The position numbers and the translations under genes are program-made. A DNA stretch of 64,000 nucleotides from NCBI RefSeq assembly GCF_055900595.2, contig NZ_CM148325.1. One strand, 5' to 3'. The first letter of the stretch is position 1, and each line of letters opens with the position of its first letter. Shown here piece by piece: positions 7,724 through 44,284 of this stretch. The notes below the pieces were generated by a model. The model made no database searches. It saw only the letters and a list, made by a program, of their open reading frames with translations, and was not told where the DNA came from.

Positions 7724-9664
7724 ATGAGATTAACGACGAAATTTTCGGCCTTTGTTACGCTGCTCACCGGGTTAACAATTTTTGTGACTTTGTTGGGCTG
7801 TTCGCTAAGTTTCTACAACGCCATTCAGTATAAGTTTAGTCATCGCGTTCAGGCGGTGGCGACGGCGATTGATACCCACCTTGTGTCGAATGACTTCAGC
7901 GCATTAAGGCCACAAATTACCGAATTAATGATGTCAGCAGATATCGTTCGTGTAGACCTGCTACATGGTGATAAACAGGTTTATACCCTCGCCAGAAATG
8001 GTAGTTATCGTCCGGTTGGCACCAGCGATCTGTTTCGCGAACTGAGCGTTCCGTTGATAAAGCATCCGGGGATGTCGCTGCGTCTGGTTTATCAGGATCC
8101 GATGGGCAACTATTTCCATTCGTTGATGACCACCGCGCCGCTCACGGGGGCGATTGGCTTTATCATTCTTATGCTCTTCCTGGCGGTACGCTGGTTACAA
8201 CGGCAACTTGCCGGGCAAGAATTGCTGGAAACCCGGGCTACTCGTATCTTAAACGGTGAGCGTGGCTCTAATGTGTTGGGAACCATCTATGAATGGCCGC
8301 CCAGAACCAGCAGTGCGCTGGATACGCTGCTTCGTGAAATTCAGAACGCACGCGAACAACACAGCCGTCTTGATACGCTGATCCGCTCTTATGCCGCCCA
8401 GGACATGAAAACCGGCCTCAATAACCGACTCTTCTTCGATAATCAGTTGGCAACGTTACTGGAAGATCAGGAGAAAGTAGGTACCCACGGGATCGTGATG
8501 ATGATTCGTCTACCGGATTTCAATATGTTGAGCGATACCTGGGGGCACAGCCAGGTTGAAGAACAGTTCTTCACTCTGACGAATCTGCTGTCGACATTTA
8601 TGATGCGCTACCCTGGCGCACTGCTGGCGCGTTACCACCGCAGTGATTTTGCTGCGCTGTTGCCGCACCGGACGTTAAAAGAGGCTGAGAGCATAGCCAG
8701 TCAGTTAATCAAAGCCGTCGATACCTTGCCGAACAATAAAATGCTCGATCGCGACGATATGATCCACATTGGTATCTGTGCCTGGCGTAGTGGTCAGGAT
8801 ACCGAGCAGGTAATGGAACATGCAGAGTCTGCCACGCGTAATGCGGGATTGCAGGGCGGCAATAGCTGGGCTATTTACGATGACTCGTTGCCTGAAAAAG
8901 GACGCGGTAATGTTCGCTGGCGTACGCTTATCGAGCAAATGCTCAGTCGCGGCGGCCCGCGCCTTTATCAAAAACCGGCGGTTACTCGCGAAGGTCAGGT
9001 TCATCATCGAGAACTCATGTGCCGCATCTTCGATGGTAATGAAGAGGTTAGCTCGGCGGAGTATATGCCGATGGTCTTGCAGTTTGGCTTATCGGAAGAG
9101 TATGACCGCCTGCAAATCAGCCGTCTGATTCCACTATTGCGTTACTGGCCGGAGGAAAATCTGGCGATTCAGGTTACCGTTGAGTCGCTGATTCGCCCGC
9201 GTTTTCAGCGTTGGCTGCGCGATACGTTAATGCAATGTGAAAGATCGCAACGAAAACGCATAATTATTGAACTTGCAGAGGCCGATGTAGGTCAACATAT
9301 CAGTCGTTTACAACCTGTTATTCGTTTAGTGAATGCTTTAGGGGTACGGGTAGCCGTCAACCAGGCTGGTTTGACGCTGGTAAGCACCAGTTGGATCAAA
9401 GAACTTAATGTTGAGTTACTCAAGCTCCATCCGGGGCTGGTCAGAAACATTGAGAAGCGAACGGAGAATCAGCTGCTGGTTCAAAGCCTGGTGGAAGCCT
9501 GCTCCGGGACCAGCACCCAGGTTTACGCCACCGGCGTGCGTTCGCGAAGCGAGTGGCAGACCCTGATTCAGCGCGGTGTTACAGGTGGGCAAGGGGATTT
9601 TTTCGCGTCCTCACAGCCACTTGATACTAACGTGAAAAAATATTCACAAAGATACTCGGTTTAA
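7724..9664 (+). CDS. csrD: CsrD, regulator of CsrB/CsrC sRNA decay (degenerate GGDEF-EAL protein)
   Basis: 646 aa with two N-terminal transmembrane segments. Length and position (divergent from acuI, upstream of mreB) match CsrD. Confidence 0.93.
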   Translation: MRLTTKFSAFVTLLTGLTIFVTLLGCSLSFYNAIQYKFSHRVQAVATAIDTHLVSNDFSALRPQITELMMSADIVRVDLLHGDKQVYTLARNGSYRPVGTSDLFRELSVPLIKHPGMSLRLVYQDPMGNYFHSLMTTAPLTGAIGFIILMLFLAVRWLQRQLAGQELLETRATRILNGERGSNVLGTIYEWPPRTSSALDTLLREIQNAREQHSRLDTLIRSYAAQDMKTGLNNRLFFDNQLATLLEDQEKVGTHGIVMMIRLPDFNMLSDTWGHSQVEEQFFTLTNLLSTFMMRYPGALLARYHRSDFAALLPHRTLKEAESIASQLIKAVDTLPNNKMLDRDDMIHIGICAWRSGQDTEQVMEHAESATRNAGLQGGNSWAIYDDSLPEKGRGNVRWRTLIEQMLSRGGPRLYQKPAVTREGQVHHRELMCRIFDGNEEVSSAEYMPMVLQFGLSEEYDRLQISRLIPLLRYWPEENLAIQVTVESLIRPRFQRWLRDTLMQCERSQRKRIIIELAEADVGQHISRLQPVIRLVNALGVRVAVNQAGLTLVSTSWIKELNVELLKLHPGLVRNIEKRTENQLLVQSLVEACSGTSTQVYATGVRSRSEWQTLIQRGVTGGQGDFFASSQPLDTNVKKYSQRYSV

Positions 9665-9842
9665 CCTGCCGTTTAATCCGTTTTCACGTAGAATAACGCG
9701 CGCTGCGTCTCATGGGAGTGTGCTTGTCTGCTCGCCAGATTGTTGCAGCACATATGCAGATGAATGACCTTACGCGGTTGCAAACAGGCGAGGAATGCTG
9801 CTGATGCATTAAGCCTTTCTGGACTCAGGCAGAGATTTGTAA

Positions 9843-11012
<1,170 letters not shown>

Positions 11013-11077
11013 TCGGATACAGGCAGGGGAAGCGTCTGTTTACCCTGCCTGGTCTGATACGAGAATACGCATAACTT

Positions 11078-12669
<1,592 letters not shown>

Positions 12670-12677
12670 AGGTTTCT

Positions 12678-13271
12678 ATGACTTCTCTGTATTTAGCTTC
12701 CGGTTCTCCGCGTCGTCACGAGTTACTTGCGCAACTTGGCGTGACCTTTGAACGTATTGTTACGGGCATTGAGGAGCAGCGTCAGCCGCAGGAGAGCGCG
12801 CAGCAATATGTTGTGCGTCTGGCGCGCGAGAAAGCACAGGCGGGTGTCACGCACACGGCGCAGGATCTCCCGGTGCTGGGTGCGGATACTATCGTTATCC
12901 TGAATGGAGAAGTGCTGGAGAAACCGCGCGACGCAGATCATGCGGCGCAGATGTTGCGCAAACTATCGGGTCAGACCCATCAGGTGATGACGGCAGTGGC
13001 GTTGGCCGACAGTCAGCACATTCTCGATTGCCTGGTGGTCACCGATGTGACGTTCAGAACGTTAACAGACGAAGACATCGCGGGCTATGTCGCCAGCGGA
13101 GAACCGTTAGATAAAGCAGGTGCATACGGTATTCAGGGGTTGGGTGGCTGTTTTGTCAGGAAGATAAATGGCAGCTATCACGCCGTAGTCGGCTTACCGC
13201 TGGTTGAAACGTATGAATTATTAAGTAATTTTAACGCACTGCGTGAGAAAAGGGATAAACATGACGGCTGA
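12678..13271 (+). CDS. yhdE: Maf-family nucleoside triphosphate pyrophosphatase YhdE
   Basis: 197 aa, [22 protein letters not shown]... Maf motif. Confidence 0.93.
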
Positions 13272-14730
13272 ATTGTTGGTAAACGTAACGCCTTCGGAAA
13301 CGCGAGTGGCGTATATTGATGGCGGTATTCTGCAGGAAATTCATATTGAACGTGAGGCGCGACGCGGAATAGTAGGCAATATCTACAAGGGTCGTGTAAG
13401 TCGTGTACTTCCGGGTATGCAGGCGGCTTTTGTAGATATTGGGCTGGATAAAGCCGCGTTTCTTCATGCATCCGACATCATGCCGCATACTGAGTGTGTG
13501 GCGGGTGAAGAGCAAAAGCAATTCACGGTGCGCGACATCTCGGAACTGGTCCGTCAGGGGCAAGATCTGATGGTGCAGGTGGTGAAAGATCCGCTTGGTA
13601 CTAAAGGTGCGCGCCTGACCACCGATATCACTCTGCCATCTCGCTATCTGGTTTTTATGCCAGGTGCTTCTCATGTTGGGGTTTCCCAACGTATCGAAAG
13701 CGAATCCGAACGTGAACGCCTGAAAAAAGTGGTCGCGGAGTATTGCGACGAGCAGGGCGGGTTTATCATCCGTACTGCAGCGGAAGGTGTTGGTGAGGCT
13801 GAACTGGCCTCCGATGCCGCTTATCTGAAACGTGTCTGGACCAAAGTCATGGAGCGTAAAAAGCGCCCGCAGACCCGTTATCAGCTATACGGCGAACTGG
13901 CGTTGGCGCAGCGTGTTCTGCGTGATTTCGCCGACGCCGAGCTGGACCGCATTCGCGTTGACTCGCGCCTGACTTACGAAGCATTGCTGGAGTTTACCTC
14001 GGAGTACATTCCCGAGATGACCAGCAAGCTGGAGCATTACACAGGCCGCCAACCGATTTTCGATCTCTTTGATGTTGAAAACGAAATCCAGCGGGCGCTG
14101 GAACGCAAAGTTGAACTAAAATCCGGTGGCTATCTGATTATCGACCAGACCGAAGCGATGACCACCGTGGACATCAATACCGGGGCGTTTGTCGGTCATC
14201 GCAATCTGGACGACACCATCTTCAATACCAATATTGAAGCGACGCAGGCTATTGCTCGCCAGTTACGGTTGCGTAACCTGGGCGGGATCATCATTATTGA
14301 TTTCATCGACATGAATAATGAAGATCACCGTCGCCGCGTGTTGCATTCGCTGGAGCAGGCGTTGAGCAAAGACCGGGTGAAAACCAGCGTTAATGGTTTT
14401 TCGGCGCTGGGGCTGGTGGAGATGACGCGTAAACGCACTCGCGAAAGCATTGAACACGTATTGTGTAACGAATGTCCGACTTGCCACGGTCGCGGAACGG
14501 TGAAAACTGTGGAAACCGTATGTTATGAAATCATGCGCGAGATTGTTCGTGTACACCATGCTTACGATTCCGACCGTTTCCTGGTCTATGCTTCTCCGGC
14601 AGTAGCCGAAGCCTTGAAAGGCGAAGAGTCACACTCGCTGGCGGAAGTGGAAATTTTCGTTGGCAAACAGGTTAAAGTACAAATTGAACCGCTCTATAAC
14701 CAGGAGCAGTTTGACGTCGTAATGATGTAA
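13261..14730 (+). CDS. rng: Ribonuclease G
   Basis: 489 aa from [31 protein letters not shown].... It overlaps the yhdE 3' end by 11 bp. Confidence 0.95.
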
Positions 14731-38535: not shown

Positions 38536-39429
38536 ATGGCAACGAATTTACGTGGCGTAATGGCCGCACTCCTGACTCCTTTTGATCAACAACAAGCACT
38601 GGATAAAGCGAGTCTGCGTCGCCTGGTTCAGTTCAATATTCAGCAGGGCATCGACGGTTTATACGTGGGTGGTTCTACCGGCGAAGCCTTTGTACAAAGC
38701 CTTTCCGAGCGTGAACAGGTACTGGAAATCGTCGCCGAAGAGGCGAAAGGCAAGATTAAACTCATCGCCCACGTCGGTTGCGTCAGCACTGCTGAAAGCC
38801 AACAACTTGCGGCATCGGCTAAACGTTATGGCTTCGATGCCGTCTCCGCTGTCACGCCGTTCTACTATCCTTTCAGCTTTGAAGAACACTGCGATCACTA
38901 TCGGGCAATTATTGATTCGGCGGATGGTTTGCCGATGGTGGTGTACAACATTCCGGCGTTAAGCGGCGTTAAACTGACCCTGGATCAGATTAACACTCTG
39001 GTTAAGTTGCCTGGTGTCGGCGCGCTGAAACAGACCTCTGGCGATCTCTATCAGATGGAGCAGATCCGTCGTGAACATCCGGATCTGGTGCTCTATAACG
39101 GTTACGACGAAATCTTTGCTTCTGGTTTGTTGGCGGGCGCTGATGGTGGTATCGGCAGTACTTACAACATCATGGGCTGGCGTTATCAGGGTATCGTGAA
39201 GGCGCTGAAAGAAGGCGATATCCAGACCGCGCAGAAGCTGCAAACCGAATGTAATAAAGTCATTGATTTACTGATCAAAACGGGCGTATTCCGCGGCCTG
39301 AAAACGGTCCTGCACTATATGGATGTCGTTTCTGTGCCGCTGTGCCGCAAACCGTTTGGTCCGGTCGATGAAAAATATCTGCCAGAACTGAAGGCGCTAG
39401 CCCAGCAGTTGATGCAAGAGCGCGGGTGA
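38536..39429 (+). CDS. nanA: N-acetylneuraminate lyase
   Basis: 297 aa from [52 protein letters not shown].... The six-frame ORF's extra 20 N-terminal codons run into the IS10 inside end. Confidence 0.96.
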
Positions 39430-39537
39430 GTTGTTTCCCCTCGCTCGCCCCTACCGGGTGAGGGGAAATAAACGCATCTGTACCCTACAATTTTTATACC
39501 AAAGCGTGTGGGCATCGCCCACCGCGGGAGACTCACA

Positions 39538-43156: not shown

Positions 43157-44284
43157 TTAACGGCGTCTATAGCCTTCCTCTAGCACCGCCTGTGTTCGAA
43201 CGAGTTCATCCGCGAGTCGTTTTTCATCAGGTAGTTGCATCTTATATTCGCTCGCCAGAACGGTGTTAGGCAAACCAGCCAGTGCATAATGCGCTTCGCC
43301 GGCTCCTTTCTCTGCACAGAGAACCAGACCGATGGGCGGATTTTCATCCGGTAGTGTCCAGTGCTCTTTGGCGTAGTTGAGATACATATTCATCTGTCCG
43401 GCATCGCTATAGCTGAATTTGCCCACTTTTAGATCGACGATTAGCAGGCAGCGTAAACGGCGGTGGAAAAACAGCAGATCGACACGAAACCAGTTGTCAT
43501 CAATGCGTAACCTTCGCTGCCGACCAACAAAGGCAAAATCATCCCCAAGTTCCAGCATGAAATCCATCAGGTGGTTGATCAGCGCCTCCTCAAAATCGGA
43601 TTCTGAGTATTCATCTTTCAATTCCAAAAATTCGAGCACAAAGGGATCGCGTATCGCCTGTTGCGGAAGAATATGCGTCTCGGCAGGGGCGTGTTGTTGC
43701 AGCATGGCTGATTTGTCATATGACAGTAGTGTCCGCTCATAAAATTGGGTCGCAATTTGCCGCTCTAGCTGGCGGACAGACCAACCACAGCGGAGCGCCT
43801 CTTTTTCATAAAAGCTGCGGGCGTCAGCGTTTTTAACGGAAAGTAGACGGACGTAGGTGGACCAGGGCAGTGGGAAGGATTTGGCAGACAGCGTCTGCCA
43901 AATCTTTGCCGATGGGAATTCTGCAGACGGTGTCTGCGGAATTCCCAATGGTGTTAATTCGCCAGACACTGTCTGGCGAATTTCAACATGTTGAAAAAAG
44001 AGGTAAAAAAGCCTCATTTGGCGTAAGTTTTTTGCAGAGAACCCACGCTTATACCTTAGACTTAAATCCTTTGATAGTCGCTTGATTAGCTGCGCACCAT
44101 ACGCAGCTCTGGCCTCACCACCTTGTTCAAATTCGACAATCCGTCGGCCAATTTCCCAGTATGTCGCGGTCATCAGCGCGTTAACGCTACGTACCGTTTC
44201 CGTTCGGGCGCTATCGACCAGATGAATAATGCCGTCGTGGATTTGCTGGTAGCCTGCTGTGGTTCCTTCTGAGAGCGATTCCAT
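43157..44284 (-). CDS. yhcG: YhcG, DUF1016/PD-(D/E)XK nuclease-family protein
   Basis: 375 aa. A C-terminal PD-(D/E)XK-like region (..VDLLFFHRRLRCLLIVDLKVGKF..) is present. Confidence 0.85.
   Translation of the reverse strand: MESLSEGTTAGYQQIHDGIIHLVDSARTETVRSVNALMTATYWEIGRRIVEFEQGGEARAAYGAQLIKRLSKDLSLRYKRGFSAKNLRQMRLFYLFFQHVEIRQTVSGELTPLGIPQTPSAEFPSAKIWQTLSAKSFPLPWSTYVRLLSVKNADARSFYEKEALRCGWSVRQLERQIATQFYERTLLSYDKSAMLQQHAPAETHILPQQAIRDPFVLEFLELKDEYSESDFEEALINHLMDFMLELGDDFAFVGRQRRLRIDDNWFRVDLLFFHRRLRCLLIVDLKVGKFSYSDAGQMNMYLNYAKEHWTLPDENPPIGLVLCAEKGAGEAHYALAGLPNTVLASEYKMQLPDEKRLADELVRTQAVLEEGYRRR
43878..43904. repeat. Intragenic palindrome A inside yhcG (GATTTGGCAGAC-AGC-GTCTGCCAAATC)
   Basis: Perfect 12-bp inverted arms around a 3-nt loop. 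Confidence 0.8.
43914..43946. repeat. Intragenic palindrome B inside yhcG (GGGAATTCTGCAGAC-GGT-GTCTGCGGAATTCCC)
   Basis: 15-bp inverted arms with one mismatch. Confidence 0.8.
43956..43982. repeat. Intragenic palindrome C inside yhcG (AATTCGCCAGAC-ACT-GTCTGGCGAATT)
   Basis: Perfect 12-bp inverted arms. Confidence 0.8.

Follow-up and report, generated by a model that had tools for sequence, protein, structure and literature searches.

A conserved stem-loop between mreB and mreC marks the mapped 3' end of the mreB-only mRNA in Escherichia coli

A stable hairpin directly downstream of Escherichia coli mreB is real, is evolutionarily maintained, and marks the mapped end of an mreB-only mRNA within the mreBCD operon. 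With moderate confidence, we read it as the 3'-end-defining, exonuclease-blocking stem-loop of the monocistronic mreB message, with Rho and subsequent trimming producing the end that is seen in vivo. Both the site and the kind of element were already known: the 3' end is present in a public Term-seq catalogue, and the element class has been described and is an ordinary one.

Results

Genomic context

The window, a 64,000-nt stretch of E. coli DNA, carries csrD, mreB, mreC, mreD and yhdE in that order. A 301-nt query around the hairpin matched 5425 of 5426 complete E. coli genomes, once per genome and at 95-100% identity. The flanking genes are mreB and mreC, as the sequence-only reading had named them (Table 1), and the 65-nt spacer between them (11013-11077) has no RefSeq annotation. 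The mreB promoter is reported to drive mreCD (PMC8510551), and a consensus promoter scan of 9500-13500 gave no sigma-70-like match; a stop after mreB must therefore be partial.

Table 1. Features of the mreB-mreC region, in window coordinates
Feature	Position	Strand	Remarks
mreB CDS	9969..11012	+	347 aa plus UAA stop at 11010-11012; from the ORF list and RefSeq K-12 annotation via the 301-nt match
Full stem-loop	11012..11058	+	Outer helix, 1-nt bulge, core helix; 7 bp + 9 bp
Outer 7-bp helix	11012-11018 with 11052-11058	+	Stacks on the core across bulged A11019
GC-rich core hairpin, 9 bp	11020..11051 (arms 11020-11028/11043-11051)	+	-21 kcal/mol, z -5.35
Apical region	11029-11042	+	Extra 3-bp helix possible in this strain
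Single-stranded block with mreC ribosome-binding region	11059..11077	+	19 nt, ACGAGAAUACGCAUAACUU; putative weak GAGAA Shine-Dalgarno 12 nt before the AUG
Position homologous to the K-12 mreB RNA 3' end	11060 (C)	+	MG1655 3399996(-), steady-state end
mreC CDS	11078..12181	+	Read-through past the hairpin required; from the ORF list and RefSeq K-12 annotation
C-rich/G-poor patch in early mreC, candidate rut region	11160..11257	+	C/G 1.47-1.57 in 78-nt windows

Some features of the surrounding sequence are recorded here in their own right. The ORF list begins mreB at a TTG codon (9894) upstream of the annotated ATG (9969). The end of mreC and the GTG start of mreD overlap by one base (12181), a tight coupling that contrasts with the hairpin-bearing spacer between mreB and mreC. 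For the E. coli mreB leader (approximately 9700-9968), a structured attenuator or riboswitch-like element has been proposed together with RNase E processing (PMC2773258), and a Salmonella RNase E map contains an annotated 'mreB-leader' ncRNA with three sites, plus one site in the 5' UTR.

Structure and stability of the hairpin

Folding confirmed the stable GC-rich stem-loop that had been read from the letters right after mreB, and enlarged it. The 32-mer quoted in that reading, CAGGCAGGGGAAGCGTCTGTTTACCCTGCCTG, lies at 11020-11051 and is the core only, with seven G-C pairs among its nine; the interval that it gave for the hairpin, 11013-11077, is instead the whole spacer, and the true structure is larger than described, its 5' edge being the third base of the mreB stop codon and its 3' edge lying 19 nt before the mreC AUG. 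The complete structure has a minimum free energy (MFE) of -30 kcal/mol (z = -5.67), which none of 200 dinucleotide shuffles equalled. Over both strands of the 64 kb, 6 of 127,908 windows of 47 nt are equally stable, and these come from two loci, the present one and 43907; the mreB hairpin is the second most stable 47-nt fold of the whole stretch.

The base of the full stem is followed by ACGAGAAUAC, with one U in eight nucleotides and no U-run, and the core stem by GUCUGAUAC, with three U in nine. A canonical intrinsic terminator joins a GC-rich stem-loop to a U-rich tract of ~7-8 nt directly after the stem; the first of these is present and the second is absent, so the E. coli hairpin is not a canonical intrinsic terminator. 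A consensus terminator scan made no call at the mreB-mreC spacer, and Rfam 15 gave no covariance-model match at E <= 10 on either strand of 9500-12500. The MFE fold leaves the presumed mreC Shine-Dalgarno sequence and the AUG unsequestered by the hairpin.

Two other roles for the palindrome were considered and rejected. A function on the minus strand was set aside because there is no convergent gene there, and the reverse-complement hairpin is followed by UACUCUUC (four U in eight), which the scan does not call. Membership in the REP/BIME family was rejected because the hairpin occupies a single place per genome across the 5425 E. coli genomes and its stem sequence varies between genera.

Other strong hairpins occur elsewhere in the window. 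On the plus strand at 43866-43990, three tandem perfect palindromes with CAGAC...GTCTG cores (tttGGCAGACagcGTCTGCCaaa; gggaattcTGCAGACggtGTCTGCGgaattccc; aattcGCCAGACactGTCTGGCgaatt) sit inside a 375-aa minus-strand ORF (43157-44284), and the first two (-27.5 and -32.3 kcal/mol) are among the three most stable 47-nt fold loci. A further strong hairpin at 39426-39472 on the plus strand, UUUCCCCUCGCUCGCCCCUACCGGGUGAGGGGAAA, is followed by UAAA and ranks fifth among the hairpin loci of the window (-26.8 kcal/mol).

Conservation and covariation

We compared 80 mreB loci from species-representative genomes, 62 metagenomic stretches recovered via the conserved flanks, and 10 contigs encoding an identical MreB. 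The length of the mreB-mreC spacer ranges from -1 nt (Pseudoalteromonas) through 3-8 nt (Idiomarina, Pseudidiomarina) and 62-69 nt (Enterobacteriaceae) to more than 200 nt (Yersinia thracica, Colwellia), and most spacers longer than ~25 nt contain a strong hairpin soon after the stop codon. In the Enterobacteriaceae, all 55 distinct spacer variants, folded individually, give a single hairpin starting from the stop codon (-20 to -33.5 kcal/mol; median z -5.0), with at least one of 200 shuffles equally stable in 7 of the 55. The position of the hairpin is kept while the stem sequences differ between lineages of the family.

Pairing is maintained out to the base of the stem. When partners were anchored on the fixed flanks, 251 of the 275 cells for the five outermost pairs were paired, and only 52-107 once the register was slid; the closing pair follows the stop codon, being A-U with UAA and G-C with UAG among the Enterobacteriaceae variants. 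When the alignment was read through the E. coli structure, pairing was found in 76.7% of cells (32-45% when slid), 12 of the 16 pairs change on both sides, and none of 500 shuffles reaches the covariation score; the imposed structure came from one of the aligned sequences, and because the lineages are related, independent compensatory events are fewer than these cell counts suggest. Among the seven Escherichia-type variants, five of the six variable hairpin positions are unpaired and the sixth is a G-C to G-U change (Fisher p = 0.009). Together, the anchored outer-pair counts, the covariation and the placement of Escherichia SNPs argue that the hairpin is under selection down to the base of its stem. 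RNAalifold returned no consensus structure from a MAFFT alignment of the 55 variants, which we attribute to arms that are out of register (the stems vary in length and sequence) rather than to missing structure.

The hairpin lies 19 nt from the mreC AUG in most Enterobacteriaceae variants and 1 to more than 40 nt from it in other lineages. The intervening 19-nt block is nearly invariant in the Enterobacteriaceae and is largely kept in Yersinia and Serratia as CGAGGAAUACGCAUAAUUUAUG; being conserved beyond what its weak Shine-Dalgarno sequence would seem to need, it may hold another signal.

Spacers at the two extremes of length differ from this pattern. Those of Yersinia thracica, Hafnia, Rahnella and four Thalassotalea/Colwellia loci are expanded to 150-275 nt and fold into long, very stable structures (down to -102 kcal/mol). 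A conserved core, …GUACUCAUUGACUAnCGUCAACUCCGUGC…, is shared by the expanded spacers of Colwellia and Thalassotalea, which suggests an inserted structured element or small RNA instead of a simple terminator. At the short end, mreB and mreC overlap (ATGA) in six Pseudoalteromonas loci and are 3-8 nt apart in four others (Idiomarina, Pseudidiomarina and a gammaproteobacterial MAG). These spacers have no room for a hairpin, so the MreB:MreC ratio must be set otherwise in such lineages, presumably by translation.

U-tracts in orthologous spacers

Tails were scored in the manner of TransTermHP, which gives more negative values to U-tract-bearing orthologues. The Escherichia tail scores -1.52 with the full hairpin and -2.66 at best with the truncated core. 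Scores of -4.3 to -5.7 were found in Yersinia, Serratia, Acerihabitans, Erwinia, Pectobacterium, Budvicia, Glaciecola and some others, and these orthologues, at the same place in the operon, are canonical intrinsic terminators built from a hairpin and a U-tract. Enterobacter, Pseudocitrobacter and Pluralibacter are intermediate (-3.5 to -4.3), with a U-rich 3' flank that pairs with a purine-rich 5' flank. Seen against this series, the E. coli hairpin resembles a terminator whose U-tract has disappeared.

The mapped 3' end and a downstream Rho-sensitive region

In E. coli MG1655, Term-seq places a curated 3' end, classed as 'primary' for mreB, at 3399996(-) (Adams et al. 2021, PMC7815308, Supplementary file 1). 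This is C11060 in the window, 2 nt past the base of the full stem and 9 nt past the core stem; 3' ends after mreB in such data were the check that the sequence-only reading had named beforehand. The catalogue row format (50 nt, the 3'-end nucleotide and 10 nt) was checked on SgrS, and the end was transferred by homology, as two hairpin positions, unpaired or apical, are not the same in the window strain and in K-12. The mreB end appears in two sheets, for two growth conditions, with average counts of 60098.8 and 36548.1 (PMC7815308); from their position in the file, we infer that these are LB OD 0.4 and M63 and that the end is absent from LB OD 2.0. The lowest minus-strand count listed appears to be 23469, so that the mreB peak, at ~2.6 times that value, is mid-range and not outstanding. 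Term-seq records ends made by termination and by processing alike, and the text of Adams et al. 2021 (PMC7815308) does not discuss mreB.

In the bicyclomycin (BCM) experiment of the same study, a Rho-termination region is reported at 3399848(-), inside mreC, with a score of 1.75 and p = 2.2e-5 (PMC7815308, Supplementary file 2). It maps to ~11208 in the window, 148 nt downstream of the mapped 3' end. The score is among the weakest in a table where most entries lie at 2-30, and it comes from one experiment with 800-nt windows (PMC7815308); because that experiment sequences native 3' ends, its counts are not coverage. The reported position coincides with the candidate rut region in early mreC (Table 1), the only patch with C>G within ~500 nt and at about the 95th percentile of the window. 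The maximum C/G of this patch is 1.64-2.08 in Enterobacteriaceae versus 1.33-1.69 in U-tract-bearing relatives, a comparison confounded by phylogeny and by the encoded peptide.

Other published material touches the locus only in part. Wachi and co-workers are said to have described, in 2006, a predominant ~1.1-kb mreB-only transcript in addition to mreBCD. Papers citing Wachi et al. 2006 either deal only with the mreB promoters or leader or refer to it briefly; mreB is absent from the SMRT-Cappable-seq supplements, those of Moffitt 2016 contain mreD reporter constructs only, and in the elongasome papers we found only the MreC:MreD ratio.

Discussion

In the sequence-only reading, the hairpin was suggested to act as a partial terminator or as a processing site and thereby to set the mreB:mreCD ratio. 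That proposal gains support from the K-12 3' end at C11060, the required read-through into mreC, the covariation and the terminator-like orthologues. In the route that we favour, RNA polymerase would pass through the hairpin; a fraction would continue and yield the mreBCD message, supplying the essential but much less needed MreC and MreD, and the remaining polymerases would stop soon after, most likely through the action of Rho on the poorly translated, C-rich start of mreC, ~100-200 nt downstream. PNPase or RNase II would then trim the exposed tail in the 3'-to-5' direction until stalling at the hairpin, so that the RNA would end at C11060 with a 2-nt overhang. The resulting stable mreB-only RNA would build up, raising mreB expression above that of mreCD. 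What is observed is the hairpin itself, its maintenance and covariation in evolution, an RNA 3' end close to its base and, further on, a weak BCM-sensitive region; that Rho does most of the terminating, that the tail is trimmed, and how strongly the mreB:mreCD ratio is affected are inferred. An exonuclease blocker must leave almost no single-stranded tail, so selection reaching the base of the stem is what would be expected of one.

This route resembles one already described for E. coli. Dar & Sorek (NAR 2018) described stem-loops that match terminator hairpins in stability yet carry no U tail; once PNPase/RNase II has trimmed a Rho-terminated transcript, such a stem-loop fixes its steady-state 3' end, and rut sites lie just downstream. 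They also proposed that terminators switch type in evolution through change or loss of U content (PMC6061677). The mreB hairpin is likewise stable, lacks a U-rich tail and has its 3' end immediately after the stem, and C>G sequence and a BCM-sensitive region follow downstream. Unlike those protective stem-loops, however, it is embedded in an operon with the next start codon only 19 nt away, which would require Rho to act within a translated gene, and the measured Rho effect is weak. Further evidence against the Rho route is the mapped end exactly 9 nt past a 9-bp core, which is the usual distance of intrinsic release, and the fairly U-rich 3' flank kept by the Enterobacter, Pseudocitrobacter and Pluralibacter orthologues.

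The main rival, which we regard as a serious but clearly less probable explanation, is that the site is a weak, leaky intrinsic terminator: the core hairpin and a degenerate U-tract (GUCUGAUAC) would release some polymerases at C11060, possibly with help from NusA or NusG, and the outer helix would form after release and stabilise the end. Leaky intrinsic termination fits the 9-nt distance from the core equally well, since polymerase acting alone typically releases RNA 7-9 nt past the stem, and the canonical orthologues of Yersinia, Serratia, Erwinia, Pectobacterium, Acerihabitans, Budvicia and Glaciecola, together with the Enterobacter-type intermediates, make the E. coli version look decayed. 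Dar & Sorek also considered that stem-loops of low U content may terminate intrinsically, though inefficiently, with Rho as a back-up (PMC6061677). Against this, the nine nucleotides that follow the core include only three U, the best score of the tail (-2.66) is at or below the usual cut-off and that with the full hairpin is -1.52, and the consensus scan makes no call at the site; moreover, the covarying outermost pairs would be unneeded for termination itself, and a Rho-sensitive signal is present downstream.

Comparison with known operons bears on the same question. The rplL-rpoB attenuator and the T1 terminator of rpsU-dnaG-rpoD in E. coli are partial intra-operon terminators, made of a hairpin and a U-tract, that set stoichiometry. 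Like them, the mreB hairpin is intercistronic and partial passage would leave proximal expression above distal; unlike them, it has no U-tract in E. coli, although its orthologues in Yersinia, Serratia, Erwinia and Pectobacterium can be placed among such terminators. Legionella pneumophila also has mreB ahead of mreCD; its annotation places a terminator immediately downstream of mreB, and Northern blots show a monocistronic mreB mRNA of ~1100 nt (Juan et al. 2015, PMC4630621), observations that add to the case for termination at this place. Legionella belongs to another order of Gammaproteobacteria, its spacer has no sequence similarity to that of E. coli, and its terminator is known from annotation. 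A stop signal right after mreB is thus widespread.

Alternatively, the 3' end could result from differential decay, as in malEFG: an endonuclease would cut downstream of the hairpin, the mreCD part would be degraded fast, and the mreB part would be trimmed back to the hairpin and persist. This would yield an identical 3' end at the stem base, it belongs to a class well documented in E. coli operons with protective 3' structures (PMC5927463), and the RNA after the hairpin, from the rest of the spacer into the start of mreC, is single-stranded and rich in A and U. The malE-malF REP stabiliser (PMC5927463) is, like the proposed mreB element, an intercistronic block to PNPase/RNase II that stabilises the upstream cistron; it differs in being a REP sequence, whereas the mreB hairpin is single-copy and has no known endonuclease site downstream. 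Furthermore, mreD-mreC-mreB is in the list of operons analysed for differential decay and falls outside the 47 found to show it (PMC5927463), although the argument is weak, since filters applied to gene pairs could have taken the operon out. The Salmonella RNase E map gives sites for mreB in the 5' UTR and leader only, with no mreC entry in the tables searched, and in the sequence directly following the mapped end, C|GAGAAU, the U at +2 of the RNase E motif (motif from PMC5927463) is missing. We consider decay after endonucleolytic cleavage less likely than either kind of termination and, in itself, unlikely.

It is also rather improbable that the role of the hairpin is mainly translational, that is, that a structure 19 nt before the mreC AUG uncouples translation of mreC from that of mreB and limits 30S loading, so that little MreC is made, with the 3' end as a by-product. 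The 19-nt distance is fixed in most Enterobacteriaceae variants, beside a weak and distant Shine-Dalgarno sequence that the MFE fold leaves accessible together with the AUG; however, conservation of the 19-nt ribosome-binding block explains the fixed distance equally well, the distance varies from 1 to more than 40 nt in other lineages, and the discrete 3' end would be left unexplained. Such a role is compatible with the other explanations and does not replace them; it may add to any of them.

A more speculative possibility, to which we give little credence, is that the hairpin is a ribosome-gated attenuator that couples MreB synthesis to mreCD read-through and to the stability of mreB mRNA. 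Since the 5' arm begins in the mreB stop codon, with whose third base the closing pair covaries, a terminating ribosome must melt the outer helix and part of the core, and the frequency of mreB translation could then set how often the hairpin folds behind RNA polymerase or protects the 3' end. If true, this would be a device for stoichiometry or feedback, possibly tied to the unexplained feedback on mreB expression (PMC8510551). In a milder version of this reading, the locus is a clean natural series in which an orthologous terminator switches from U-tract-dependent to U-tract-free 3'-end formation.

Finally, an RNase III processing site or a functionless structure is very improbable: typical RNase III substrates span about two helical turns (~20 bp or more of near-continuous duplex), and the stem here, albeit a long and mostly perfect duplex, is shorter (16 bp with a bulge) and has the mapped end outside it, while a repeat element does not fit a single-copy hairpin with no Rfam match and a chance palindrome is excluded by the z-scores, rank, conservation, covariation and Escherichia SNP placement.

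Of these explanations, the protective stem-loop at which Rho termination and trimming would leave the 3' end is the one that we favour. The cell requires far more MreB than MreC or MreD, and one promoter region serves all three genes; ending and stabilising an mreB-only mRNA at a hairpin between the genes is a simple way to produce the first protein in excess. Since the site is catalogued and the class well described, the finding mainly confirms a textbook operon design. Its small additions are comparative: the position of the hairpin is kept across Gammaproteobacteria while stem sequences and U-tracts come and go, the Escherichia lineage appears to have lost its U-tract, and in the Enterobacteriaceae the closing pair goes with the stop codon. 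These details are not surprising, and they are useful as an example of how terminators evolve.
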